A stretch of DNA of 64,000 bases from an uncultured Chloroflexia bacterium. Its GTDB lineage: Bacteria; Chloroflexota; Chloroflexia; QHBQ01; JADMIH01. Where the stretch lies: positions 11,314 to 75,313 of the forward strand of contig CAWEQU010000005.1 in NCBI GenBank assembly GCA_963811305.1, written 5' to 3'. A program made the translations under genes and the position numbers. Of this stretch, positions 8,371 to 44,308 are shown in pieces (position 1 is the first letter of the stretch; the number at the start of each line of letters is the position of its first letter). The notes beneath the pieces were generated by a model. That model was not told the DNA's origin. It did not search any database and saw only the letters and a program-made list of their open reading frames with translations.

Positions 8371-9468
8371 TCAGCGTGGCTCGAGGACGATGTTGAAGGT
8401 GCCTTCGGTCTGGGTACATTGGGGGAATACTTCGGTCTCAACGGTGCGGTAACCTGGCGCGGAGACGTTGACGTGAATGTGCGGGTGGATATTCTCATAC
8501 GGTCCGGGATAGTGACTTTCAAAGCTGTAAGACCCGGAAGGGCCAGTGATTATCATAGCTTCATACTCCTCCCTGTATACACCGTCAGGCCCGGCCATAC
8601 GGAACTTCAGCTTCGCGCCTTGTATTGGAGAGCAGTCGCGGCTTGACTTCACCACACCGTTGAGGATATGCCCTTTACCTACGGATGAGCGCAGGGGGGC
8701 GTCGGGAGGCTCAGGCCCGGTGGTGGGACCGGTCTGCGTGGGAACGCAGCCGGACGGTACTGCTGTCGGGGTAGCAAGGCCAGTAACCACCTCCGGGTGT
8801 ATGGCGCTGATGCGGGCGGTCCCCAGCTGCGCGATACGAATGTTCTCGTAAGTGCGCTTCTCAGGCACATAAAATGCCTCCTGGTAATACTCCAACACGG
8901 CGCGCTCAAAATATTGCACTCTATATGTCTGTTCGTTCAAGGGAGAGACTTCGGTGAACTCCCCGGAGATTGGATAGCCGAACTGCGCCAGCCCGCCAGT
9001 ATTGAGCCAGAAATCGAGGAACTCACAGCCCAGGTGCTTGCCCGTTTCGGGGAAAAGATGCGCGCCTTGTTGGGTGTTAGCCATCTCACCAGGCCCGCCG
9101 TTCGGGTACTTCTCTTTGTACTGGAAGACGCCCAGCAGAGATAGAAGCACGTCATAAGGTGGGTCGTTTTCGGGGTGTAGCTCGAACACGGCCTTCTCGA
9201 AGTACTGGACCGTATAAAGCTTGCCGTCTGTGTCAGACTTTTCTTGCATATCGTTCGAGATTGGGAGACCTTGCACCAAAGCACCCCCGTGCCTGGCGAA
9301 GTATTGCAGGAACTTACCCCTGACTACCTTACCCGTCTCAGGGAAGGTAAGAGATGTATCCTGGCCCTGGGCATGTAAAGGAGAGGCAGACTGGAACGAA
9401 AAGATTAAGATTGCCGAAAGGCTAGAAGCGAACAGGCGCAGCGCCATTTTCGATAGTGGTGAATTCAT
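8371..9468 (-). CDS. Secreted protein: the same two-repeat N-terminal module as gene 1..1299, fused to an intradiol-dioxygenase-like beta-sandwich domain
   Basis: Signal-like N-terminus. Repeats FPETGKVVRGKFLQYF..VQYFEKAVFELHPEN..VLLSLLG and FPETGKHLGCEFLDFW..VQYFERAVLEYY. C-terminal domain with NIHPHIHVNVSAPGY. Confidence 0.6.
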   Translation of the reverse strand: MNSPLSKMALRLFASSLSAILIFSFQSASPLHAQGQDTSLTFPETGKVVRGKFLQYFARHGGALVQGLPISNDMQEKSDTDGKLYTVQYFEKAVFELHPENDPPYDVLLSLLGVFQYKEKYPNGGPGEMANTQQGAHLFPETGKHLGCEFLDFWLNTGGLAQFGYPISGEFTEVSPLNEQTYRVQYFERAVLEYYQEAFYVPEKRTYENIRIAQLGTARISAIHPEVVTGLATPTAVPSGCVPTQTGPTTGPEPPDAPLRSSVGKGHILNGVVKSSRDCSPIQGAKLKFRMAGPDGVYREEYEAMIITGPSGSYSFESHYPGPYENIHPHIHVNVSAPGYRTVETEVFPQCTQTEGTFNIVLEPR

Positions 9469-9490
9469 TCCAGACCCTCCCTTATGCCGA

Positions 9491-10234
9491 TTATGGCGTA
9501 ACTGATGGCGTAGCTATGGCGCTGTCCGTCGCGGTAGCGATAAAGTTGAGGCGCAATACTATGTCGTCCTCCACACGCAGAATCTCAAGGCTTGGCGGGG
9601 TCACACCGAAGTCGCTCATTTTGAGCTTGACAGTCGCATTGCCCTGCAGCGTATCGCCCGTGAGAGTCACTTCAGCATCCCACGTTACGCGGCGTATGGC
9701 TTCGCGCACAGCCATATCACCCGTTAGAGTGAAAGAGTGCGCTTCCCCCTCAACCCACCGGGCAGGCAGCCCGTTGGCGGTGGCGTTCTTGAAGGTCGCC
9801 AGGGGATATTGGGCCGATTCCAGCCAGCTACGCCTGATGGCATTGTCTCTTGACCGCTCGTCCGTCCGCAACTGGCTGATGTCAACCACGATCTCGCCTA
9901 TTACGGATGCGGAGGGGTTGGCATGGTCCACCATGATGTCGCCCGCAACGCCACTCGTAGTGCCCGTGACGGTCACGAGGCCCCGCATGTCGAAGAAGGT
10001 CTCGTCCACCGTATACGATGCCTGAGATTGTGAAGGGTCAATCCTGTAGATTCGGGCGGCTGCGGTTGTAGTCGTCGTTGTCGCAGCGGAGGTGGGACCT
10101 GCTACCAGTGTCGGCGCGGCGGGGGGCTTGCTGGACACGGCAATGTCGGAGGTCAGCCAGAAATAATAGCCTCCTCCTGCGGCAACGGCTACACCCAACA
10201 ACACCAATACAACAAATAGAATCTTCCTGACCAC
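9491..10234 (-). CDS. YceI-like domain protein, membrane-anchored
   Basis: N-terminal TM helix, then YRIDPSQSQASYTV..VTGTTSGVAGDI..DISQLRTDERSRDNAIRRSWLESAQYPLATF, which matches the YceI family pattern. Confidence 0.7.
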   Translation of the reverse strand: MVRKILFVVLVLLGVAVAAGGGYYFWLTSDIAVSSKPPAAPTLVAGPTSAATTTTTTAAARIYRIDPSQSQASYTVDETFFDMRGLVTVTGTTSGVAGDIMVDHANPSASVIGEIVVDISQLRTDERSRDNAIRRSWLESAQYPLATFKNATANGLPARWVEGEAHSFTLTGDMAVREAIRRVTWDAEVTLTGDTLQGNATVKLKMSDFGVTPPSLEILRVEDDIVLRLNFIATATDSAIATPSVTP

Positions 10235-10427: not shown

Positions 10428-11736
10428 TAGCGCAACGACTCGGCAACTTGCAAAGCGTCGGATAGGAAAACAGGTATTTCTAGCCTGTATGCGACACCGT
10501 CTTCCTCCCACATGAGCGCATCACCGGGTATATGGTGTTGCGAAGTCAATGTTTCCTGCTTCTCCTTCATCGTAGAAGGTCAGGAGATGTGGAGCAGCCA
10601 TCCACCTTGCTGAATGCCCATGCACTGACGCCTCGGCAAGGAGACTGACCGCCCGCAAAGGTCTCCTTAGCGGCAGGGCCGGCAACCATCTGGTAGAGGA
10701 GCATACCCACTCGGTCGCGCTGTCCAGGGCTGTACCATGCAAGGACCACCATTGGACTTGCCCGCTCCTGGAAGAAGACCAGGTCCGGCTCGTCTATATA
10801 TCGCGGGTAAGCAGGCCACCTGATAGGGAAAGCTACTCGCTTACGCGCCTCCTCAAGGGTTGTAGCGCCCGCCAGGTTGCGCGTCCACTCCGGTGGCGTC
10901 TGGTCAATTTCCGAGATTGGAGTCTCGATGCCCTGGGAGATTTCAAGTGATTCCGCAATGCGCACTGCCTCTTCGAGCGGGAGGGTAGTTTCCAGCCTAT
11001 AGGTTACGTCATCTTCTTCCCAAACCAGGACGTCGCCGTCTACCAGCCGCCGGGCCTCCTCTCTGACGAAGCCCCAGATGTCGTAGAACTGCAACCAATG
11101 CGGCCCACGTACCCATGCAGCACGCTTCCCGTTGACTGTCGTTTCTTGAAGCTGCGTGCTTTCAGCTATTGATTTCTCGAGGAGCTGGGACAGCGAAGAT
11201 ATTTCATACAGTACCAGGCGTGCCTGGTCCTTGCGACCAGGTTCGTGCCATGCGAGGATGAGCGCCGGGCCGCCGAAGTCCTGCATAAAGACGCGGTCAG
11301 GTTTACCCAGGTCTGAGGGGTATTTCGGCAGCCTGATGGGAAGAGGGAATTGCTCTGCGGCAAAAGCAAGCGTAGTCTCACCCACCAGGTTAAGCGGGCG
11401 GGCGGGAGTAGGCGATGGACCCGGTGTGGTCGAGACCGATGTGGGCACGGGAGTAGCGACCACCACTTCGATAACTCCGATGCGGAATATAGAGCGGACG
11501 AACCCCTGAACTTCGGGCACGGTAAGGAGAGTTGCCAGGATGAGCAATACCGATAGCGCTGCTAGCGTCCACGCGAACCTGGGCCGAGGTCGCGCTGCGG
11601 CTGATTGTGGACTATTCGCGCTTGCCAATCTCTGACGCACGGAGCCGGCGATATCGGGCGTAGGGGGGTAGCGGAATGCCGGTGCGACATTACGCAGGCG
11701 CTCATCCATCGTGGCAAACTGGTGTTGATCGCTCAT
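10427..11736 (-). pseudogene. Anti-sigma factor (single TM, two DUF4367-like extracytoplasmic repeats), interrupted by two frameshifts (~10642 and ~10525) or sequencing errors
   Basis: ATGA overlap with the ECF sigma gene. Repeat 1 ends ..VNGKRAAWVRGPHWLQFYD..DGDVLVWEEDDVTYRLETTLPLEEAVRIAESLE. The repeat 2 equivalent is split over three frames: ..FAGGQS | SLLAEASVHGHSARWMAAPHLLTFYD.. | GDALMWEEDGVAYRLEIPVFLSDALQVAESLR*. Confidence 0.6.
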
Positions 11737-12685: not shown

Positions 12686-12765
12686 GTCATTCCGAACGCA
12701 GTGAGGAATCTCCGAGCTTAGACGTATGGATAGAGTTTTAAATTCCTCACTGCGTTCGGAATGAC
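12686..12765. repeat. 80-nt palindromic element, family P copy 1 (24-nt arms GTCATTCCGAACGNAGTGAGGAAT)
   Basis: gtcattccgaacgcagtgaggaat..(32 nt loop ctccgagcttagacgtatggatagagttttaa)..attcctcactgcgttcggaatgac. The right flank actctttatacattcgttgtta is shared with the copy at 44230. Confidence 0.75.
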
Positions 12766-15440: not shown

Positions 15441-16441
15441 ATGAGCAACTTTATCTTCCCCTATGAGCGCGGCAAGACCCTGGCAGCCGCCATACCAGAA
15501 CCAGGGCCGGTGCTTGGTATAGACATCGGCGGCACGAAGCTGGCGGCGGGTGTGGTTACTCCCGATGGCCAGGTTCTTTCGTATACCCGCCAGCCAACAC
15601 CGACGGACCTCGATGCGGAAGGATTACTGGGAGCCGTCCTTAGCGTATCCGAAACTGCGCGCCAGGAGAGCAGCCGTGAGCCTGTAGCGGTCGGGATCGG
15701 CTGTGGAGGACCGATATTCTTCGAAGAAGATACAGTTTCTCCCCTGCATATGCCTGCCTGGAGGGGGTTCCCTTTACGCCCACGCCTCGAATTATCATTA
15801 GGGCTGCCTGCGGTGCTCGACAACGACGCTAAAGCGTTCGCGCTAGGCGAAGCGCTCTTTGGGGCGGGACGGGGCGCTCGTTACATGCTCGGCATGGTAG
15901 TCTCGACCGGTATAGGTGGCGGCATCGTGGTGGACGGGCGGCTCCTCGATGGCGCACATGGCAACGGGGGCCACATAGGGCATACCATCGTCTCGGTGCG
16001 CGGACCTCGATGCTTTTGTGGAGCGGTAGGGTGTCTCACTGCCTACGCCGCGGGCAGAGGTCTATCGGCGCGTGCGGTGGCAGCGCTCAAGCGTGGCGCG
16101 ACAAGCACCCTAGCCTCACTGCCGCATGGCAGCCTGACGGGGCGAGACATCGTTGAGGCCGCGGCATCGGGGATGTACTGGCTGGGCGTCTGTTACGTGA
16201 GGCGGCAACGGCACTGGGTCGAGGTATAGCGAGCGCAGCAAATATCCTCGACCTGGATCGGGTGGTGCTAGGTGGCGGGTTGCTCAATGCAGGGGAGCTA
16301 TTGCTTGCACCCCTCCGCCGGGAGTTGCGCCGGAGAGCGCGCCTCGCGTTCTCCAGGCACGTAGACCTGCGGACTTCGGAGCTTGGGAAAGAGGCGGGGG
16401 TCGTAGGGGCGGCCTCTCTTATCCTGCAACATTGGCAGTGA
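15441..16441 (+). pseudogene. ROK-family sugar kinase (glucokinase-like), frameshifted in a G-run at 16169-16172 (or sequencing error)
   Basis: GIDIGGTKLAAGVV and the ROK zinc motif HTIVSVRGPRCFCGAVGCL. After ..EAAASG the ORF derails (MYWLGVCY..*). Adding one G restores DVLAGRLLREAATALGRGIASAANILDLDRVVLGGGLLNAGELLL..ILQHWQ* ending at 16441. Confidence 0.75.
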
Positions 16442-17073: not shown

Positions 17074-17100
17074 GTCATTCCTCACTGCGTTCGGAATGAC
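17074..17100. repeat. Internally deleted copy of palindromic family P
   Basis: gtcattcctcactgcgttcggaatgac joins the start of the left arm to the right arm. The flank agggagacatgtgcttcgttat matches the inverted left flank of the 12686 copy. Confidence 0.6.
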
Positions 17101-22428: not shown

Positions 22429-22632
22429 CGGTTTGCGCCGGGGACCGCTCTGTCACCTGGGAAGGGGTATCTACCGTAGTCGCCAAAATTTACTCCTTGT
22501 ACATGCTAAACAGGGCGCGGCCCGCACCCTGCCCAACATTATACCTTTTTCTTTCTTTTTCTTCATGAGTAGAAGGTGGCTTGCGTGAGCGCCCCTAAAC
22601 AAGCTACCCTATGATACTTACAGAAAACTTGC

Positions 22633-23331
22633 TTAGGCCCCACCGACGTTGATGTTCTCCTTATAGCCAACTGCCTCTATAAATGTCTGGAAATCCAAGT
22701 TCCATGGTTCCACAAAACCATCAAGAACGAACGAGATGAAAAGTGCAACGGAACGTGCCTGGCAGTTGAGAGACTTCTGAGGATTGAAGGCTATGTCGGT
22801 GAAGCCATCCCGCTCACGAAGTTGGTCACGGACAGAAGTATCAAGGAGGGAGAGGGCGCGAATATAAAGCCAGTCGTAAAAGGCAGTAGCGGGTTTGGTT
22901 GGAAAGTCTTGATCACCGAAGTGGAAACACACCAAGTGGCTGGCGTTTTGTCGAATACGAGGATCGCGCTTCGCCGTTTTGGGGTCCAGCGTAGCCAATT
23001 CAATGTAAGGGCCACCCTCTATAAATACCTTGGACGATTGGAAGGCACTTTCTAGGGGAATGGGGCCCAGGGTTGGATGCTCGACTTTCAGGTTGAATGC
23101 AGAGAGCCTACGGCCCAGATCCTCAAGGGAGCGAGATGAAATCTCAAGAGGCGCTCCGGCAACAGCCAGGCGCTTGGCAGTTTCATGAAGACTGGAGATA
23201 CTCCGCTGCTGCTGCTTGAGCGCAAAACCAGGGAACCAATCGAATTCTACATCAATGGTGCTTACACGTGGAGCATTAGGGAGAGGGATGAAGATTGGGC
23301 GTTTGGCGCGAGGAGTTTTCTTAATGGGCAT
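22633..23331 (-). CDS. Putative cognate partner (antitoxin candidate) of the DarT-like gene: no macrodomain motifs, core resembles NADAR/YbiA (DUF1768), plus an unassigned ~85-aa N-terminal region
   Basis: ATG 23331 lies 13 nt after the DarT-like stop (an alternative TTG at 23373 overlaps it by 29 nt). By-eye alignment to E. coli YbiA: RLSAFNLKVEHPTLGPIPLESAFQSSKVF vs DFSNFAAWPIKVDGKTWPTSEHYFQAQKF, and LDPKTAKRDPRI vs SSPMVAARMGRD. Coding confidence is high; the functional call is tentative. Confidence 0.5.
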   Translation of the reverse strand: MPIKKTPRAKRPIFIPLPNAPRVSTIDVEFDWFPGFALKQQQRSISSLHETAKRLAVAGAPLEISSRSLEDLGRRLSAFNLKVEHPTLGPIPLESAFQSSKVFIEGGPYIELATLDPKTAKRDPRIRQNASHLVCFHFGDQDFPTKPATAFYDWLYIRALSLLDTSVRDQLRERDGFTDIAFNPQKSLNCQARSVALFISFVLDGFVEPWNLDFQTFIEAVGYKENINVGGA

Positions 23332-23344
23332 GGCAGCTTTTGCC

Positions 23345-24076
23345 TTAGCGTGCTTGGTCAGGTCTAGCACCAAATATTTTAGGATACACCTCGCACTTGA
23401 TGTGGCGTGGCCATGGAAGTGTTCTGGCTATGTTGAACGCATCTTTGGAGTTGAAGTAGATATAATCAACATACTTAAGACTAATAGGGGTTTCGGAAAC
23501 CAGCACTTCGGCTTGGGGGTCCTCAGGAAAGCACTGCCATAAGGGCTTACGAGTATCAGGATCTGGGTAAAGTGACCTGAGGTGGTCCAGTCGCTGGAAT
23601 CGCTGGCCTCTGAGATAAGGAATATGGCCTCGCAGGTCGGCACGTGCGGCATTCCCCGGAAGGAAGATGCAATCGAGTTCCCAAAGTACCGCAGCGTCGA
23701 GGGCAATTACCGCAAAAGTAAGATCATAATAAAGCCCTTTCTTATAGAGCATCTTGTAATTTGTCCATTCGATGCTGCAGCAGATGGCCCACGTTGCACC
23801 GTCGGTTCGCCATACGTCCGTGGGGACGAAGTTACTGTCGCCTAGAGCCGCTACTTGGTCACGACTGAGAATACCGTGCCTGCATATACCTGGCAAATTC
23901 TGCACTGGTGTAAAGTGATAAACAGTGGAGATTGAACGTGACCTGGCGAACTCCTCCATCGCATCTTGCTGAGCTTCTAACTTCGGGGCCTCTACAGGCT
24001 TTCGAAATTCAGCGACCACTTGCTCCAAATACTGACGGAAACGATTTATTTGTTCGTACACAAGGGTCTCCTGCAA
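23345..24076 (-). CDS. darT: DarT-like DNA ADP-ribosyltransferase (DUF4433 family) toxin candidate
   Basis: VYHFTPVQNLPGICRHGILSR (cf. DarT YH-T-NL-SI--GL), FLPGNAA (cf. F-DGNA), and EDPQAEVLVSETPISLKYVDYIYF (the QAE-LV catalytic-Glu motif). The start is uncertain: TTG 24076 or internal ATG 23959 (MEEFARSRSISTVYHFT). Confidence 0.7.
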   Translation of the reverse strand: MQETLVYEQINRFRQYLEQVVAEFRKPVEAPKLEAQQDAMEEFARSRSISTVYHFTPVQNLPGICRHGILSRDQVAALGDSNFVPTDVWRTDGATWAICCSIEWTNYKMLYKKGLYYDLTFAVIALDAAVLWELDCIFLPGNAARADLRGHIPYLRGQRFQRLDHLRSLYPDPDTRKPLWQCFPEDPQAEVLVSETPISLKYVDYIYFNSKDAFNIARTLPWPRHIKCEVYPKIFGARPDQAR

Positions 24077-24283
24077 TAGGGACTGTCAACGCACGCAAGA
24101 AGGAATATGAGAAATGAATTGTACTAAGAAAAGCAGGCTTCTCAGGAATAGAAAAGTTGAACCTGATTGATGAACAATAGCGCGTACTCGAACCACTCAT
24201 ATTTATATACCACCTCGTCGGGAAGATGGCAAGGGCAGACCTCGATGCCAACCACGAGAAGTACTCATCGAGTGGATGGGCAT

Positions 24284-26083
24284 CTACTCTCCGGCAACGA
24301 GGTACGCCTCGAAGAGAGAAGGTCGCTCGATACGCCATTCACTCCAGTGGTTAAGGAGCGGCTCGATGTCAATCTGTGGCGCGCGCAGCACATCGGCAAC
24401 GGAGCGTGCGGCATCGTCCAGGCTCACCTTACCCTGTGAGGTTTCAAGCATAGACGCAAGTATGGAGTGCAAATCGTCCAGCATATGTCGAGAGAGCAGC
24501 CCCACGCCCGCCACATATAAGCACTTCTCGCTATCCAGGAGACGGGCAGAGGAGATAAGCTCAGTGCGCGTGTAGGCTTGCAGGCTTTCGGCGACCTCGC
24601 GCTCTGGTATGAAACCGCGCTCTATAACTGATGCTCGCAGGCTCTCGACCTGGGAGTGGGCGGCGTCCAGTCGTGCTTCACGCTGGCCGTAATGCGTGTC
24701 GAGCAGGGTCAGCATGTCGGTAGCGCGCACGGCATTCTTGTAAGGGGCAATGGGAAAGGGGAGATTGTTGAAGGTGGACATGGCATCGTGCGGCATCGCA
24801 AGTATGAGGGGCGTCGTCTCATCGCTCAAGGAGAGCGCCCTCAGCTTCGCAACCTTCTTCTCCCGATAGCCGGGAGACCAGAACCCTGCTATCTCCATGA
24901 AGACCCGCGTCTCACCTCGCAGGAAGGCGAAGTCGGGTATCAGCACCACTCCTGGCGCAAGCAACGGGTCAGGCTCGCGCTGCAATAGCCAGCCGTGCGT
25001 ATGCCCTTGCCTCTCCAGCGACTTGAACTCCTTGTAGAGACGGGCTTCCACGAGGCTGTCGAAGGTTGGCTCTTCCACTCCTGTTTTATCCTCCTGACCA
25101 TCCAGGGACGACCCGACAGAGTAGGCAGCAGAAGTCTCCGCTACTCTCCCAGGCATAGCACCCTTCTCCCCGTCGGGAGAGTATTCCAGCATGGTGAGTA
25201 TCTCCGAGGTGAGATGGAACTTGTACTCCCGGTCGTGCAGGACCAGGTAGGCGGTAGCAGCCACCCCTGGCGCTTCACCATCGCTCCCGGCCAGCAACGA
25301 GCGCAGCAAGCTCAGGGTGACTTCGGCCAGCCGCCTGCCATACTTGTCGGCGCTACCTGACGCCTGCTCAGGCCCATATAGCACCAGAGAATATCCGACG
25401 TCCTTTGCCTCGATATCCACGTAGACGCCCCGCCGCTTAGCAACAAAGTAAAGCCGCTTGAGAGCATGGCCCGGCAGCTGGCTCACGCGAAACTCGACAC
25501 GCGTTGAATGAGCGACGAGGGTTTGGACTGCACCCCGGTTGTAGAGGCGCATCAGGTCGCGTGGCGTGAATGCCTCACCTGTCCGGGCCAGCACAGTGGA
25601 GGCCTCCGCGTCACGAGCCAGAAGCGCATCTACCAGGTCAGGGTCCGGAGGCAGGCCGCACTCCTGGGCGAAATCTGACAGGAAACGATTTCGCTTACCC
25701 GGGGGAACCGCGCCACCATACTGGGCGTTTGCGGCATCCCAGAGCGCCAGCCGTAGCCCGGTCGGGCTATCAAGCCCCTTTTCGGCTAAAGCAGATGCCT
25801 GTTCTGGAGTAAGTAGAGTATCAAGCGGCAGTGACTCGAATTTATAGCGAGTCAGCAAGCAAGCTTCGACACAACGCCCCAGCCTGTAATCACCCATAAC
25901 CCCTTCGAGGGCGCGCACATCGTACTCACTATGTGGCTTACCTACGTACTCTTCAAATACCGCAATCGCCTGCTCCAACAGCTTCAGCGCAGCACGCCCA
26001 TGCAGCAGCTTAGGAACGACAAGAAGCTCATCGTCTGGGTCTCGCATGGTGCGCCGCTTGAGGTTAGTAAGGGAGAAGAGCAT
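24284..26083 (-). CDS. DUF790 / Bax1-like nuclease (XPB partner)
   Basis: 599 aa. C-terminal restriction-endonuclease-like block VVLIPDFAFLRGETRVFMEIAGFWSPGYREKKVAKL, as I recall for DUF790. It sits downstream of an XPB-type helicase, the conserved XPB-Bax1 arrangement. Confidence 0.65.
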   Translation of the reverse strand: MLFSLTNLKRRTMRDPDDELLVVPKLLHGRAALKLLEQAIAVFEEYVGKPHSEYDVRALEGVMGDYRLGRCVEACLLTRYKFESLPLDTLLTPEQASALAEKGLDSPTGLRLALWDAANAQYGGAVPPGKRNRFLSDFAQECGLPPDPDLVDALLARDAEASTVLARTGEAFTPRDLMRLYNRGAVQTLVAHSTRVEFRVSQLPGHALKRLYFVAKRRGVYVDIEAKDVGYSLVLYGPEQASGSADKYGRRLAEVTLSLLRSLLAGSDGEAPGVAATAYLVLHDREYKFHLTSEILTMLEYSPDGEKGAMPGRVAETSAAYSVGSSLDGQEDKTGVEEPTFDSLVEARLYKEFKSLERQGHTHGWLLQREPDPLLAPGVVLIPDFAFLRGETRVFMEIAGFWSPGYREKKVAKLRALSLSDETTPLILAMPHDAMSTFNNLPFPIAPYKNAVRATDMLTLLDTHYGQREARLDAAHSQVESLRASVIERGFIPEREVAESLQAYTRTELISSARLLDSEKCLYVAGVGLLSRHMLDDLHSILASMLETSQGKVSLDDAARSVADVLRAPQIDIEPLLNHWSEWRIERPSLFEAYLVAGE

Positions 26084-26114
26084 AAGTTATCAATAGACCT
26101 GCAATGTTGTGCCT

Positions 26115-26194
26115 GTCATTCCGAACGTAGTGAGGAATCTCCAAGCTTGGCTGTATGGATAGATCTCTAAATTCCTCACTACGTTCGGAATGAC
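26115..26194. repeat. 80-nt palindromic element, family P copy 3, inserted between the XPB and Bax1-like genes
   Basis: gtcattccgaacgtagtgaggaat..ctccaagcttggctgtatggatagatctctaa..attcctcactacgttcggaatgac. A CTCTGCG x3 heptamer block follows at 26257-26282. Confidence 0.75.
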
Positions 26195-26290
26195 ACGGAG
26201 AGACCCTTTCGTAATTCATCACAAGTATGCCGTATAACCCTAACCCCCAATAACCTCTGCGTCTCTGCGCCTCTGCGGTGAACTATAGGA

Positions 26291-27688
26291 TTACTGCCGC
26301 CTGCGCGATATGCTTTCCTCGGTCGTTTCTTCCGTCACGACCTCGTAAAGAACAGCTTCGGTGGCTTTGGGTCGCAATACCCGGCCCAGGCGCTGGATGA
26401 ACTCGCGCTTGGTGGCGCTGCCGCTCAGGATGATGGCGACGTTGGCATCCGGCAGGTCAACGCCCTCGTTCAGGACGCGGCCCGTCGCCAGCTTGCTGAA
26501 GCGACCTGAGCGGAAACCATCGAGGATGGCCTTGCGCTCAGCAGCAGGGGTCTTGTGTGTGACAGTCGGTAGACAAAAGCGGCTCCCTATCTTCTCCGCC
26601 AGGGCGTTGTACTCGGAGAAGACCAGCACGCGATCATCCTTATGGCGTGCCAGTAGCTCCGCTACTACCTCCATCTTGCCTGAAGCACTGAGAGCGAGCC
26701 TGCGAGCTGCCTGGTGAGCCAGGAGCGCCTCGCGGGCGGCGGGATCGTTGCCGCTCCGCCAGATGAGGAAGCGTTCGTAGTCATTGCCCGACTTCATGCT
26801 GATACGGTTCCTGCGAAGATAGGCGCGATACACCTCGGCGGCGCGGTCATATGAAGCACGCTCATCCGCCGTAAGCTCGACGCTGATACGCTCTGTGCGG
26901 TAGTCAGCTATGAACTGAGCTTCGCGTAGCTGGGCGGGCAGCCGTTCGTACACCACCGGACCTACCAGATAATCCAAATCGGAATGGCGCAAATCGCTCC
27001 GGTCGGGAGTGGCGCTCAGGCCGAGGCGAGCGGTGGCGATAGCCCCTTCCGCGATAGTGCGATACGTGTCGGCTGGGAGGTGATGCACCTCGTCAAAGAC
27101 CAGCAGGCCGAAGTGGGAGAGTATCCTGCTGTGTATGGCAGCGGAGTCGTAAGTTATCACCGTCACGGGCTTCAGATCTTTCTCACCACCGCCCCAGCTA
27201 CCTACATCCCCCTCGTCCAGGTTCGTATTCCCCAGGAGGGAAGCGCGCCACTGCCCCAGGAGGTCAAGCGTGGGCACGCAGATCAGTGTGTGCGTGTTGG
27301 AGGCAGCTATAGCCATAAGAGCGACCAGCGTCTTGCCCGCGCCCGTAGGCAGCACCACTACCCCTCGGCAGTCCGCGTCCCACCAAGCCCCTAGCGCCTC
27401 AGCCTGGTAAGGACGAGGTTGTAGCTTCACCTCTACCGGGTATGGCAGAGGTGGGCGCGCATCAAACCCCTCTTTGATAATGTAGAGGTGTGCAAGGGTA
27501 TTATGGATGGCCGGATAGTCTAGCGGGAGGACGCGCAGGCACTTGCGGCGATTGTCGTGGACTACGCGGCCTCGCCAACTGTTCGCGCCCAATTGACTAT
27601 GTAGCTCTTGAGTAGTAACACCCTCAGGGGGGAGGAGGAGCAGGTCGCTGCCTGCCAGGACGAGCGTGACCGTGGGCTTACTTTTCAC
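26291..27688 (-). CDS. XPB/ERCC3/Rad25-like superfamily-2 DNA helicase
   Basis: Walker A LPTGAGKT, motif II DEVHH, motif III LGLSATP, motif VI QRLGRVLR. The N-terminal ~90 aa resemble a damage-recognition-like domain. 465 aa. Confidence 0.85.
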   Translation of the reverse strand: MKSKPTVTLVLAGSDLLLLPPEGVTTQELHSQLGANSWRGRVVHDNRRKCLRVLPLDYPAIHNTLAHLYIIKEGFDARPPLPYPVEVKLQPRPYQAEALGAWWDADCRGVVVLPTGAGKTLVALMAIAASNTHTLICVPTLDLLGQWRASLLGNTNLDEGDVGSWGGGEKDLKPVTVITYDSAAIHSRILSHFGLLVFDEVHHLPADTYRTIAEGAIATARLGLSATPDRSDLRHSDLDYLVGPVVYERLPAQLREAQFIADYRTERISVELTADERASYDRAAEVYRAYLRRNRISMKSGNDYERFLIWRSGNDPAAREALLAHQAARRLALSASGKMEVVAELLARHKDDRVLVFSEYNALAEKIGSRFCLPTVTHKTPAAERKAILDGFRSGRFSKLATGRVLNEGVDLPDANVAIILSGSATKREFIQRLGRVLRPKATEAVLYEVVTEETTEESISRRRQ

Positions 27689-28955
27689 CGCGCTGCTTTT
27701 CTAGCTTCATCACCACCCGCTTCAACCGATGCTCAAGCTCGGAGCGCTCGACTACGTTGCTCGCCCGCTCCATCGCCATGAGGGTGTATTGGTGGGCTGC
27801 GGAGTACTCTTTGGCGCGGTGCTCGTAATGCTTGGCAAGCTCTAGGTATGGGAACATCAGGTGGGTGCCCTCGTTCGCCAGCTTCACCCAGATCGCCACC
27901 GCCTCGTCGCGCTGTTGCAGGTATTTGTAGAGGAAGCTCATCTGCCGGAGAGCCGCCGCCCGCAACTCAGGCGAGGGATCGAGCAGCAGGCCACGCTCAT
28001 ACGCCCGGAGGCTTTCGGGGTACTTACCTAAATCAGCGTACAGCTTGCCCAGCCCGAACAGCTCGGCGGCGTGGAGGTCCACCTCGTCAGGCTCGTCAAG
28101 GATGCGGCTCACGTGTCCGGTGAGGGCCACCAGCGAGAGAAGGTCGTGCTCGTTGTGGTCGAACACGGGAAGGACGTGGCCGATGTGGCCGACGCGTAGG
28201 TACTGGAAATAGAGTGAGGGGATGCGCCACCCCGGCACGTCGAACCCACGGCGAACGCCCAATATATGCGTCTCCAGCGTCTCTAGCGAACACGATTCGA
28301 GCCGGTCCTTCCAGAGGCGGCGAGAGGGGCCAAGCATGTCGAGGTGGGGCGGGTCCTTGAGCACGCAACGCAGACGGCTTGTTATGAAACGCGTCTCCAG
28401 CAGGGGCCAGTCGAAGCTCTTGCCGTTGAAAGTGACCACGGCGGCAAATTGCGAAAAGAGGTCATTGAGGGCGTGAAGCAAACAGCGCTCTGCCGATACA
28501 TCCGACAGGAAGTACTGCCTCACCACCACCTCATCCCCCGCCTCCGAGAAGAAGGCCACACCTACCAGGAAGACGTAAGTGCCCGTACCGCCGGAGAGGC
28601 CGGTGGTCTCGGTATCGAGGAAGAGGAGCCTGCGCGCGTCCAGGTCGTGCAGGGCGGAGGCGCGCCCGGCGTCCCAGAGCACCCTGGGGCGCGTGTGTAG
28701 CACCGAGCCGAGAGCTACCGGCCCGCGCGTCACGCTCACCGGATAGCGCCGCTCCACGGCGAAGCATGGCCCGTCAGGGGTATCGTGCCACGCGCCTGGG
28801 AGGGCCTGGTCAAGGCTCACCCGCTTGCGAGAGATAGCCGCGGGGCGTATCGCTTCAATCCCGGCTGGAGGCGAGGGCTGCGAACCAAGCGGAGGAGTAC
28901 CCCCCGATACCCGCGGGCGCACGCCCATTGCTTTCAGGCGATCACGTAAGTCCAT
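27678..28955 (-). CDS. RNase-H-fold (DnaQ/PolB-exo-like) exonuclease with C-terminal TPR repeats, YprB/MrfB-like
   Basis: ExoI LFLDTETTGL, ExoII VTFNGKSFDWPLL, ExoIII HNEHDLLSL. TPR-like helices follow (GKLYADLGKYPESLRAYERGLLLDP, AKHYEHRAKEYSAAHQY). 11-nt overlap with the helicase gene. Confidence 0.75.
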   Translation of the reverse strand: MDLRDRLKAMGVRPRVSGGTPPLGSQPSPPAGIEAIRPAAISRKRVSLDQALPGAWHDTPDGPCFAVERRYPVSVTRGPVALGSVLHTRPRVLWDAGRASALHDLDARRLLFLDTETTGLSGGTGTYVFLVGVAFFSEAGDEVVVRQYFLSDVSAERCLLHALNDLFSQFAAVVTFNGKSFDWPLLETRFITSRLRCVLKDPPHLDMLGPSRRLWKDRLESCSLETLETHILGVRRGFDVPGWRIPSLYFQYLRVGHIGHVLPVFDHNEHDLLSLVALTGHVSRILDEPDEVDLHAAELFGLGKLYADLGKYPESLRAYERGLLLDPSPELRAAALRQMSFLYKYLQQRDEAVAIWVKLANEGTHLMFPYLELAKHYEHRAKEYSAAHQYTLMAMERASNVVERSELEHRLKRVVMKLEKQRGEK

Positions 28956-29038
28956 TGCGGGAATTATAGCACAAATGAACTGATAGAAGCGAATATTTCC
29001 ACGTACTCACCCAAACCTATCACCTTCCTTTTTCTTCC

Positions 29039-29240
29039 AAACATGAGACATCTCGAACTATAGAGTACGGAACCGCCAAGACGCCAAGAACGCCAAGAAA
29101 CCGCCAAGGTAAAAGAGGGATTATGGGCAGTGAGAGCACTACTTCCTCTAATATCTTGGCGCTCTTGGCGGATTCTTGGCGTCTTGGCGGTTCCGTCTAT
29201 TCTAATGACGCTTGCTCAAAATTCGGGATGACTTATGTTT
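29039..29240. mobile_element. MITE-like element, copy E2 (same subfamily as E1, opposite orientation)
   Basis: Ends aaacatgagacatctcgaactatagagtacggaaccgccaagacgccaaga.. and ..tcttggcggttccgtctattctaatgacgcttgctcaaaattcgggatgacttatgttt. Both ends align with the E1 ends, while the central ~60 nt differ. Confidence 0.55.
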
Positions 29241-29346: not shown

Positions 29347-32300
29347 ATGAAGATACGCAATGTGATTTTGACTTCGCTTGGTCTCGTCTTGCTCATTGCC
29401 CTGGCGTATAGCGCCACGCAACGTCAAGGCATAGCCACCGCCGCAAGCCCTCAGCAGGGGAGTGATTGGAAGCGGTGGCAGCTCACAGGCAGCGGGCTGA
29501 ACGGTGTTGACGCCATTGGTCCGAACGACGCATGGACGGTGGGCAGCGACGGCACATTAGCGCACTGGGACGGCGCGAGCTGGACCGCTTATGACAATAC
29601 CAAGCTGGGGACGATGGTCTTCAACTCTGTCGATATGGCCGCAAGCAACATGGCCTGGTCCGTCGCGAGTGGGGGCAAGATATTCCGCTACAACGGTACA
29701 AGCTGGGTCGAGGAGACCAGCAACAATGGCAGCACCACCCTGTACGACGTAAGCATGGCCTCCGCGACGGACGGTTGGGCGGTAGGTTCTAATGCCAGGT
29801 TTGCCCACTATAACGGCACCGACTGGCAGGTCGTCGCCCCAGGCGGCGTGCTGACCACGACGATGTACGGGGTAGACATGCTCAACTCTAGTCTCGGCTG
29901 GGCCGTCGGCGGCGCGTCCGACGCGAGCGGTATCCTGGGCAAGATCGCACGCTGGGATGGCACCTCCTGGCAAGTAGTCTACACCGGCAACCGTATCCTC
30001 TACGCGATAGATATGCTTGACAGCAACAATGGTTGGGCAACCGGGCAGGGAGGCACGCTGCTACATTGGGACGGGACCAATTGGAACCTGACATCTTCCC
30101 CTTCAGGCGCTGTAACGGTGGATGGCGTATCGGCCATCACCCCCACCGATGCATGGGCGGTCGGTGCGACGAACGGCTGGACCAACAACGTCTGGCACTG
30201 GGACGGCACGAGTTGGACACCAGTCTCTACACCGAACGGCGCGCCCCTGAACGATATAGTGATGCTCAGCGCGAGCGACGGCTGGATAGTTGGCGACAGG
30301 GGCACTATCTACAGGTACAACGGATCGGCATGGGTAATTTCGAATACGCACTTCACCACCAACGGCTTCTACGGCCTCGATTTCCTGACACCTAACGATG
30401 GGTGGGCAGTCGGCGTGCTAAATGCTACCACACCGCCCGCCTATGGGTTACAGCACTGGAACGGCAGCGATTGGGAGATATACCAGCCACCGTTCTTCCA
30501 GCCGACGATGTATGACGTCGGCATGGTTGCGACCGACGCAGTATGGGCTGTGGGCACATCGGGTTACGTCTTCAAGTGGAACGGCTCGAGCCTGGACACG
30601 CGATAACAGCCCCACAGACGCGCACCTCTACGCCATGTCCATGATCTCAGCTACCAACGGTTGGGCGGTCGGCAGCAGCGGGCGCATCGTGCACTACGAC
30701 GGCACAGCCTGGACTAACTACACCAGCAACACCACGACCAACCTGTGGTCCATCGATATGGCAAACGAGAACGAGGGGTGGGCCGGCGGCACTCTGGGTC
30801 TCATGCTTCATTACCAGAACGGCACCTGGACCCCCCTCTCGCCCAACCCCGCGAGCTTCACGATAGAGGGGATACATATGCTCAACGCCAACGAAGGGTG
30901 GGCGGTGGGCTACAGCGGCACCATCCTCCACTACTTCAACGGCACCTGGACACCCCAGACCAGCCCTACAAGCCAGAATCTGCTGAATGTTCACATGGTC
31001 AACTCGAACGAGGGGTGGGCCGTGGGAGCCGCGCCTTCGGGCGGAATGGGCACGCTTCTCCATTACCAGAACGGCACCTGGAGCCTCGTGCCAAATCCAA
31101 CCGGCAAGACCCTGCGCGACATCTACGTATTCGGTACGGGCGAGGGTTGGACAGTCAGCGAAGCGCCCGGCGCGAAGCTGTACCTTAGCACAGGTAATAT
31201 AACCCCCACACCTGGCCAGACCGCCACATCGACAAGCGTCCCGCCGACAAGCACAGCTACAAGAACGGCTACTTCGACTTCCCTCGCTTCTACCGCGACG
31301 AGGACTAATACGGTCTTGCCACCTGCCACCGGAACGGCAGTAACACCCAGTGCAACTCCCGCATGTGCTACAGGCTGGAGCGTGGTATCCAGTCCCAACG
31401 TTGGGACGCTCTCCAATGCCTTCGATGGAGTATCCGCAGTCAATGCGAGCGACGTGTGGGCGGTAGGATATAGCTACGATAATAGCAGCGGGGAACTTGC
31501 CCTCGTCCAGCGGTGGAACGGCAGCTCATGGAGCGTGGTCCCTGCCCCTCAGCCTGGGCAAAGCAGCAGGCTCAAGGCTGTGAGTGCTATCTCCGCCAAC
31601 GACGTATGGGCTGTCGGTTACTATGTAGGGGGCTCGACGCAAACCCTCATCGAGCACTGGAATGGCACGCAGTGGGATGTGATACCCAGCCTCAACACGG
31701 GGGCCTGCGCCAGCTACCTGCAAGCCGTCGCCGCCATAGCACCGAACGACGTGTGGGCGGTGGGATATTATCTCTTATGCGATAGCACGCCGCAGACGCT
31801 GACGATGCACTGGAATGGCAGCCAGTGGACTATGGTTAATAGCCCTAACATCGGCAGCCTGACCAATCGCCTTAATGGAGTAGCGGCTATTTCGTCAGGC
31901 GACGTGTGGGCGGTGGGCGAGTACGTCGTTGGGGCAGACGGCGTCGTGCCTATGGCCCTCCACTGGAATGGCGCGAGCTGGACCAGTATCTCTATGCCCC
32001 AACCAACAGGATTTGCTAACAACCTCTTTGCGGTGAGCGCAGTGTCGGCGAGCGACGTATGGGCGGTAGGCTATTCTTACAACGATCAAGGGTCCACCAG
32101 GACGCTTATAGAGCGTTGGAACGGCACAGCGTGGAGCATTGTTACCAGCCCCAACCCTGGGTTGAGCCGCCTGCGCGGCGTCTCTGCTCTCACCGCTAAT
32201 GACGTCTGGGCGGTAGGCGACTCTAACAATCAACCTCTGACGGTGCATTGGGATGGTGCGCAATGGAGCGTCGTGCCCAGCCCGAGCGTCGGCCCAAGCT

Positions 32301-33148
32301 ACCTCACTGCGGTAGACATGGTATCGGCTAATGACGTATGGGCTGTCGGGAACTATTACATCGGAGGTAGTATCTCGCAAACACTCGTGGAGCGCTATAG
32401 CGGTTCGTGCTCCACCCCCACCGCCACAGCTACGCCGACGGCAACAAACATCTCCACGGCTACAGCTACCAACACAGTAACGCAGACTGCGTTGGCTACG
32501 ACCACCCCAACTGCGTGCGCTCTCACCTTCATAGACGTGCCTGCCGACAGCACCTTCTACACCTGGATCAGATGCTTAGCGTGCAGAAGTATCATCTCCG
32601 GCTACACAGATGGTACGTTCCGCCCAGGCAACGACATCACTCGTGGGCAGATAGCCAAGATGGTCTCGAATTCAGCGGGCTTTTCCGAGGACCCCGGCCC
32701 ACAGATATACGAGGATGTGCCTGTAGGTAGCCCATTCTACGACTGGATAAACAGGTTATCCATGAGAGGACACATGGGAGGCTACCTGTGTGGCCTCGTA
32801 CCGGAGGAGCCATGCATCTTCCCTGACAACCGACCGTACTTCCGACCCAACGCCAGTGCCACTCGTGGACAGCTAGCCAAGATTGTATCGAACGCGGCAG
32901 GACTGGTAGGAGACCCCATCGGCTTGTTCTACACAGACGTACCCAATGACCACCCATTCTACGTATGGATAATGCGTCTTACCAGCCTCGGAGTGATGAG
33001 CGGATACCCGTGCGGCGGCGAGAACGAGCCATGTGACGATGCGAACCGTCCATACTTCCGACCATTCGCCAACGTGACGAGAGGACAGGCATCCAAGATT
33101 GTGGCTAATACCTTCTTCCCTGGCTGCGAAACACCCACACATCGATGA
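29347..33148 (+). pseudogene. Giant surface protein (~1,267 aa): beta-propeller-type repeats + Thr/Pro linkers + 3 C-terminal SLH domains. One frameshift at ~30591 (or sequencing error)
   Basis: ORF 29347..30606 ends ..FKWNGSSLDTR*. Removing one C gives FKWNGSSW-TRDNSPTDAHLYAMSMISATNGWAVG, which continues the repeat pattern (W.VG..G.i.HW.G..W) into ORF 30422..33148. SLH units follow: FIDVPADSTFYTWI.., YEDVPVGSPFYDWI.., YTDVPNDHPFYVWI... Confidence 0.75.
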
Positions 33149-44229: not shown

Positions 44230-44308
44230 GTCATTCCGAACGAAGTGAGGAATCTCCATGCTCACCAGGTGGATAGATTTCTAAATTCCTCACTCCGTTC
44301 GGAATGAC
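44230..44308. repeat. Palindromic element, family P copy 4, between the DUF4396 gene and copA
   Basis: gtcattccgaacgaagtgaggaat..ctccatgctcaccaggtggatagatttctaa..attcctcactccgttcggaatgac. One arm mismatch. The right flank is shared with copy 1. Confidence 0.75.

Follow-up and report, generated by a model that had tools for sequence, protein, structure and literature searches.

A conserved gene cluster of a Chloroflexia clade places a predicted MrfB-type exonuclease beside an XPB helicase and a Bax1 nuclease

INTRODUCTION

Two described prokaryotic repair assemblies, each built around a different helicase, come closest to the genes discussed here. In the archaeal XPB-Bax1 complex, the nuclease Bax1 bound to the helicase XPB acts in an XPG-like manner, with its incision at the junction on the 3' side of the lesion; the nuclease site of A. 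fulgidus Bax1 (AfBax1) consists of E275, D305 and E318 (PMC7293015). A 2012 paper on M. tuberculosis XPB stated that a complex of the XPB-Bax1 type had not yet been identified in bacteria, and the cellular role of prokaryotic XPB-Bax1 is unsettled. In the other assembly, MrfAB of B. subtilis, MrfB degrades DNA as a 3'-5' exonuclease that depends on Mg, favours free ends and shows hardly any activity when given nicked plasmid alone, and an AlphaFold-Multimer model of MrfAB docks the N-terminal MrfB helix on the helicase MrfA (PMC11194089). The published MrfAB model, in which the helicase peels off the damaged strand and the exonuclease degrades it, names no nicking or entry-point enzyme and is silent on how the exonuclease gains a DNA end. 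Here, we analysed a 64-kb stretch of contig CAWEQU010000005.1 from an uncultured Chloroflexia bacterium (the window, at its full length of 64,000 nucleotides (nt)), in which the predicted genes of an MrfB-type exonuclease, an XPB helicase and a Bax1 (DUF790) nuclease follow one another, with a DarT1-NADAR cassette next to them.

RESULTS

Conservation of the cluster

The three genes are intact open reading frames (ORFs) on the minus strand (Table 1), and in this respect the original prediction, made from the letters of the window, holds. The order exonuclease, zero or one variable gene, XPB, Bax1, on one strand, is found in the window and in all eight other complete loci of the clade (L001, L086, L087, L105, L106, L107, L108 and an 80-kb JGI contig), and 13 further contigs were common to the match lists of the exonuclease and of Bax1, paired on identical length. 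Identity to the window proteins within the clade is at least 67% for the exonuclease, about 73-93% for XPB and 55-91% for Bax1. The flanks differ: at least three contexts occur among the clade loci, namely genes of S-layer-homology (SLH) proteins, an acetyl-CoA synthetase gene and a sigma-70/ABC-transporter region. As the trio is intact despite these differing flanks, the cluster is conserved and has been kept through rearrangements.

In the window, the coding regions of the exonuclease and XPB overlap by exactly 11 nt, and in L107 the gene that fills the slot between them overlaps the XPB start by the same 11 nt. The slot genes are not the same from locus to locus (Table 1). An MrfA (DUF1998) helicase was not found in the window, nor in the 8-10 kb around each of the clade loci.

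Table 1. Features of the window and genes between exonuclease and XPB in the clade loci
Feature	Locus	Position	Strand	Basis or remark
MrfB/YprB-type DEDDh 3'-5' exonuclease, 425 amino acids (aa)	window	27678..28955	-	Pfam, structure match, AlphaFold2 (AF2) model
Archaeal-type XPB (Rad25) superfamily 2 (SF2) helicase, 465 aa, GTG start	window	26291..27688	-	Pfam, NCBIfam, match to A. fulgidus XPB (AfXPB)
Bax1/DUF790 structure-specific endonuclease, 599 aa	window	24284..26083	-	Pfam, NCBIfam, AF2 fold match
XPB-Bax1 spacer, 207 nt	window	26084..26290	-	holds repeat-element hairpin
Extended -10-like element TGCTATAAT	window	28963..28971	-	read from sequence; candidate promoter
DarT1-NADAR cassette, not part of the module	window	22568..24299	-	indel between bax1 and a spermidine-synthase-like gene
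DarT	window	23345-24076	-	PF14487, 41.4 bits (cut-off 22.5)
NADAR-DarT1 antitoxin	window	22633-23373	-	PF22397, E=2e-73, 246.7 bits
No gene between exonuclease and XPB	window, L086, L087, L105
Slot gene: luciferase-like monooxygenase	L001	9395-10279
Slot gene: 144-aa DUF1801-like protein	L106, L108	6919-7353 (L106)
Slot gene: 382-aa protein		L107	9382-10530		no Pfam match
Slot gene: 203-aa protein		JGI 80-kb contig	9021-9632		no Pfam match

Linkage outside the clade

Is this linkage a common arrangement of MrfB-type exonucleases, or of XPB-Bax1 pairs? A scan of a genome collection with the exonuclease alignment gave 80 loci outside the clade at 33-51% identity, from Anaerolineae, Bacillota, Acidobacteriota, Aminicenantes and Atribacterota. 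A helicase of the MrfA type (DEAD + Helicase_C + WHD_HRQ1 + MZB/DUF1998) is encoded immediately upstream in 33 of these 80 loci, and in 39 (of the 72 informative loci) a stretch of at least 3 kb around the exonuclease is free of helicase genes; XPB or Bax1 stands beside the exonuclease in none of the 80. Outside the clade we compiled 18 XPB-Bax1 pairs, 12 of them metagenomic and 6 annotated on Deinococcus megaplasmids, with at least 2 kb of upstream sequence in 10 of the 18. The exonuclease was found in 0 of the 18, the metagenomic pairs having been searched for it by tblastn and by profile. The original prediction had proposed that XPB-Bax1 is here the partner of an MrfB-like exonuclease, in a three-enzyme bulky-adduct excision module not known to be characterised, and had named a lack of synteny in other genomes as a refutation. 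That refutation did not occur, as the linkage was recovered in every clade member examined, and the literature searched contains no description of an MrfB-type exonuclease linked to XPB-Bax1. The idea that MrfB and XPB-Bax1 are generally associated in bacteria was rejected on the two counts given above.

In a neighbour-joining tree, the XPB-linked exonucleases form a single branch nested in the MrfB family. Their sister group consists of unlinked exonucleases at 47-54% identity, with no helicase linked, and the nearest MrfA-linked exonucleases are those of Symbiobacteriaceae and Bacillota. At all three loci of the sister Chloroflexia clade (L002, L109, L110), the exonuclease gene lies downstream of a hybrid HisKA_3/response-regulator gene; it is directly upstream of epmB-epmA-efp in L002 and L109, and these genes are found about 6 kb downstream in L110. 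Together, this tree and these neighbourhoods suggest that the exonuclease gene was recruited once, in a single lineage, after it had lost its MrfA neighbour.

The DUF790 family is small: a profile search of 1.84 billion representatives gave 1402 clusters (50% identity), and a word-based homologue search with Bax1 reached 81 matches, all inside the clade. The six Deinococcus megaplasmids (L112-L117; for example NC_019789.1, 132339-135001) carry overlapping genes of an XPB-like helicase and a DUF790 protein, annotated as 'DEAD/DEAH box helicase family protein' ('helicase' in one) and 'DUF790 family protein' ('hypothetical protein' in one). The pair of D. peraridilitoris adjoins topA and a split NucS gene.

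The three predicted enzymes

The exonuclease matches RNase_H_2 (PF13482, E=4e-36) and, at residues 296-328, several TPR models of Pfam. The MrfB core of B. subtilis (8un9) is its best match among solved structures by sequence (E=5e-35) and also the top fold match of its AF2 model (template modelling (TM) score 0.71), which matched TPR folds too and has a predicted local distance difference test (pLDDT) score of 88 and a predicted TM score (pTM) of 0.81. The modelled layout, with an N-terminal helix (3-9), a disordered linker (14-42), a core (about 54-287) and a TPR domain or solenoid (296-424), is the same as the published MrfB architecture (PMC11194089). The DEDDh set D114, E116, D182, H267 and D271 shows no variation in 30 homologues of 40-100% identity, and the DLRxRLxxLG helix at the N-terminus is kept in XPB-linked, MrfA-linked and unlinked exonucleases alike. 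Ahead of the exonuclease ATG at 28955, an extended -10-like element (TGCTATAAT) ends at a distance of 7 nt. A consensus promoter scan skipped this element and a good -35 hexamer is absent; its position suggests a candidate promoter that would give a leaderless operon mRNA.

The helicase translation contains GAGKT, DEVHH, SAT and QRLGRVLR and matches ResIII, Helicase_C and ERCC3_RAD25_C of Pfam. AfXPB (2fwr/6p66) matches it over residues 76-464 with E=5e-99 and near-equal numbering, a similarity that takes in both RecA-like domains and the thumb region; residues 1 to about 75, where an N-terminal damage-recognition domain would lie, have the length found in AfXPB and were not aligned by HMMER. 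The XPB equivalog model of NCBIfam, NF045503, is its top match, yet at 252 bits against a cut-off of 610 the helicase stays below equivalog level and matches part of the 548 model positions. The GTG start is supported, since relatives align from residue 1. After helicase motif III, the RED motif reads R-S-D (residues about 221-223, ATPDRSDLRH) in the window and R-A-D in some clade members. The R and D are kept and the E is replaced in all bacterial XPB-like helicases examined (the Chloroflexia clade, the metagenomic loci L090/L091 and the six Deinococcus loci), whereas R-E-D is retained in archaeal-type loci and in AfXPB.

For the 599-aa protein, the DUF790 match of Pfam (E=1e-42, residues 22-460) reaches 146.5 bits against a cut-off of 28.8, and Bax1 models are the top matches in NCBIfam. 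A Bax1 profile of the clade finds S. tokodaii and A. fulgidus Bax1 with E=6e-23, and the only significant fold matches (E<=1e-3) of the AF2 model (pLDDT 80) are eight archaeal Bax1 chains, with E from 1e-17 to 6e-21. The acidic triad E346 (FDSxVE), D384 (IPDF) and E397 (MEIAGFW) is invariant in 28 clade sequences, aligns to S. tokodaii Bax1 (StBax1) and corresponds to the three nuclease-site residues of AfBax1. The nuclease domain spans about 335-453; behind it, residues 460-599 make up an extra C-terminal domain (about 140 aa).

These matches bear out what the original prediction had said of the first two genes, namely an exonuclease of MrfB architecture with a TPR tail and an XPB-type helicase whose start overlaps it by 11 nt. 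For the third gene, the assignment to DUF790 stood, whereas the nuclease domain, which had been placed at the C-terminus, lies ahead of the extra domain. By their motifs, all three enzymes look catalytically competent.

Neighbouring and intergenic elements

Directly downstream of bax1 lies the DarT1-NADAR cassette, in which the DarT and NADAR genes overlap by 29 nt. From the SLH gene to the gene of the CCA-adding enzyme, the window aligns collinearly with L105, its closest relative, at 87-89% nucleotide identity. The exception is the 1.73-kb cassette segment, a clean indel, in whose place L105 has 52 nt (10785-10836), a spacer that contains a terminator-like hairpin (CATGGATTGAGCG...CGCTCAATCCATG). 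Neither a target-site duplication nor a transposase was obvious at the indel, and DarT was not found at any other clade locus. As the cassette is missing at the collinear site and at the other clade loci, its adjacency to the trio appears coincidental and due to a strain-specific insertion. The original prediction had left room for a functional link with DarT, and this comparison speaks against it: by all indications, the cassette is a recent insertion unrelated to the trio.

In the spacer between XPB and Bax1, two stretches of 24 bp (26115-26138 and 26171-26194) form a perfect inverted repeat (fold z-score -4.2). This repeat is a copy of a dispersed palindromic element with arms GTCATTCCGAACGNAGTGAGGAAT about 32 nt apart, of which further copies occur in the window at 12686-12765, 17077-17100 and 44230-44308. 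The arms give seven matches in the window, with none expected by chance, and they lie in intergenic spacers. The element occurs in L105 at 8899-8969 and 16321-16344 and was not found in more distant relatives, in which the XPB and Bax1 genes overlap or stand 20-130 nt apart. Since the pair is tight in these relatives and the repeat is limited to the closest one, the 207-nt spacer is a secondary insertion. The element looks like a repeat of the repetitive extragenic palindromic (REP) or miniature inverted-repeat transposable element (MITE) type. A structured-RNA reading of the intergenic hairpins was rejected, as no Rfam family matched anywhere in the window and the hairpin belongs to a dispersed element.

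Between the exonuclease gene and a divergent plus-strand gene that begins at 29347, a palindrome of about 130 nt (29067-29196) is made up of tandem GCCAAGA / TCTTGGC units, and a self-complementary counterpart is present at the same position of L105. Beyond it, two large plus-strand ORFs for repeat-rich proteins (29347-30606 and 30422-33148) have 185 nt in common, read in different frames. The product of the second shows by eye C-terminal repeats of the SLH type, and its N-terminal part looks non-protein-like; the pair may reflect an internal true start or one frameshifted gene. Elsewhere in the window, the genes are those of envelope, transport and housekeeping proteins, and apart from the trio and DarT1-NADAR no repair or defence genes were found among the window proteins. 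A Cheo-box-type GAAC-N4-GTTC site occurs nowhere in the window, this LexA motif alone being covered by the SOS check.

DISCUSSION

Based on the conserved order of the three genes, we consider it reasonably probable that the trio forms one functional unit of an excision type, encoded by a conserved, lineage-specific operon. This functional reading is drawn from gene neighbourhood. We take the excision of damaged or aberrant DNA to be its most likely function: XPB, as a 3'-5' translocase, would open and widen a bubble, upon which Bax1, bound to XPB, would nick the damaged strand 3' of the lesion at the junction of single- and double-stranded DNA, in the manner of XPG. The MrfB-like exonuclease would then take the new 3'-OH and resect the lesion strand in the 3'-5' direction as XPB feeds it, and a polymerase and a ligase would fill and seal the gap. 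Because the exonuclease would degrade the strand 3'-5', a second incision would be unnecessary. We favour these steps because the 3'-5' polarity and free-end preference of MrfB, the 3' cut of Bax1 and the missing entry point of the MrfAB model fit together. Gene content, intact catalytic motifs, the conserved co-directional linkage and the coding overlap are observations; we infer in which order the events would run, that the exonuclease would be physically coupled to XPB-Bax1 and which kind of lesion would be treated, and to this particular order we give only about half the credence that we give to the unit as such.

Several observations weigh against a functional unit. In five of the nine loci an unrelated, variable gene stands between exonuclease and XPB, which weakens the argument that they are tightly co-translated. 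The DLRxRLxxLG helix, the element modelled to dock on MrfA, is retained in the exonuclease, so an MrfA encoded elsewhere may be its true partner. Moreover, the linkage was absent from all 80 exonuclease loci and all 18 XPB-Bax1 pairs outside the clade. It is conceivable, albeit rather unlikely in our view, and the main alternative, that two independent repair activities share a locus, with the exonuclease serving an MrfA (DUF1998) helicase encoded elsewhere and its position being an inherited accident or a convenience of co-regulation. Such an arrangement would agree with a helix that is conserved whatever the linkage, with the tolerance of variable genes in the slot and with the solitary exonuclease of the sister clade, beside epmB-epmA-efp or a hybrid histidine kinase; since unlinked exonuclease genes are common (39 of 72 informative loci), a pairing with a partner encoded elsewhere is plausible. 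It does not sit well, however, with a gene order and strand that outlast several rearrangements of the flanks in a clade in which Bax1 falls to 55-57% identity, with the overlap of the exonuclease and XPB coding regions, or with the lack of MrfA in the window and in the 8-10 kb around every clade locus. A stronger form of the one-unit proposal, which we put forward tentatively and hold to be possible but doubtful, is a self-contained single-incision excision pathway that is independent of UvrABC and MrfA: Bax1 would give the entry nick, the exonuclease would replace the 5' incision and the N-terminal helix would have been retargeted from MrfA to XPB. A true swap of helicases, with XPB in place of MrfA as partner of the exonuclease, as the original prediction had it, is a hypothesis that goes beyond the linkage; this linkage is confined to one clade, and the sister clade of the exonuclease already lacks a linked helicase.

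A helicase and two nucleases beside DarTG1, a known defence toxin-antitoxin system in which NADAR is the reversal enzyme (PMC11543638), could also be read as an anti-phage or anti-plasmid system in a defence islet, all the more as the region just downstream of bax1 varies between relatives and as the C-terminal half of the helicase is shared with PbeA and with restriction helicases of the Dnd type (PADLOC, NCBIfam). We regard such a role as very unlikely. XPB proteins are by far the best matches of the helicase, and its match to PbeA in PADLOC-DB 2.0 runs through the shared helicase half alone; the same database gave no match for Bax1 and a marginal DEDDh match for the exonuclease (E=3e-4). 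A search of 2.9 million viral contigs gave no relative of Bax1, genes of housekeeping and envelope proteins flank the trio, the cluster is seemingly inherited vertically within the clade, and the DarTG cassette is a recent indel that occurs at no other clade locus. With no PADLOC system matched, no relatives in viral contigs and a housekeeping context, the defence reading was rejected. The neighbourhood of DarT calls to mind yet another role, a dedicated repair module for the ADP-ribosyl-DNA adducts that DarT makes. Such ADP-ribosylated DNA is processed in E. coli by nucleotide excision repair and RecF (PMC7003065), and trio and DarT are immediate neighbours in the window. Against this, the DarT-NADAR segment is absent from the collinear L105 site and from all other clade loci, the cassette brings NADAR as a reversal enzyme of its own (PMC11543638), and DarT is preceded at close distance by a weak promoter-like site. 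A tie between the trio and DarT is therefore highly improbable, and we rejected it because the cassette is missing from the same site in L105 and from every other clade locus.

What the cluster adds is a genomic association that ties together two gaps, the role of XPB-Bax1 in prokaryotic cells and the source of the DNA end on which an MrfB-type exonuclease acts. It suggests that XPB-Bax1 takes part in strand excision, with a junction nuclease feeding the exonuclease, and it offers a set of three proteins open to reconstitution in vitro. If the proposed self-contained pathway were true, it would provide the first functional handle on the role of prokaryotic XPB-Bax1. The arrangement is of limited significance, being confined to one mostly uncultured clade of Chloroflexia, and its functional side is an interpretation.

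How does the trio compare with the systems described so far? It shares with archaeal XPB-Bax1 (A. fulgidus, S. tokodaii; 6p66, 6p4f, 6p4o) the adjacent, co-directional genes, a helicase that matches AfXPB, a nuclease model that matches Bax1 folds only and the E-D-E triad. It differs from the archaeal pair in its bacterial host, the R-S-D form of the RED motif, the 599-aa Bax1 with its extra C-terminal domain and, upstream, a third enzyme of the MrfB type that accompanies none of the 18 pairs outside the clade. The bacterial pairs of XPB-like and DUF790 genes (Deinococcus megaplasmids, L090, L091) also have overlapping or abutting genes and the R-S-D motif, but they consist of two genes only and lack an exonuclease gene in the surrounding 7-8 kb, and Bax1 of Deinococcus is only about 405-410 aa long. 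DarTG1 (DarT1-NADAR) is represented by the downstream neighbours, which match the DarT and NADAR-DarT1 models of Pfam; unlike the trio, it is a separate cassette that is present in this strain only and lies outside the repair module. With the MrfAB (YprAB) pair of B. subtilis, which acts in mitomycin C repair, the window has in common an exonuclease of MrfB architecture that falls inside the MrfB tree. Here, however, no MrfA/DUF1998 gene is adjacent, the adjoining helicase comes from another SF2 family, that of XPB, and a dedicated endonuclease, Bax1, which is missing from the MrfAB model, is encoded in the same cluster. Judged by its gene content, the trio is best described as a clade-restricted recombination of two known repair modules.

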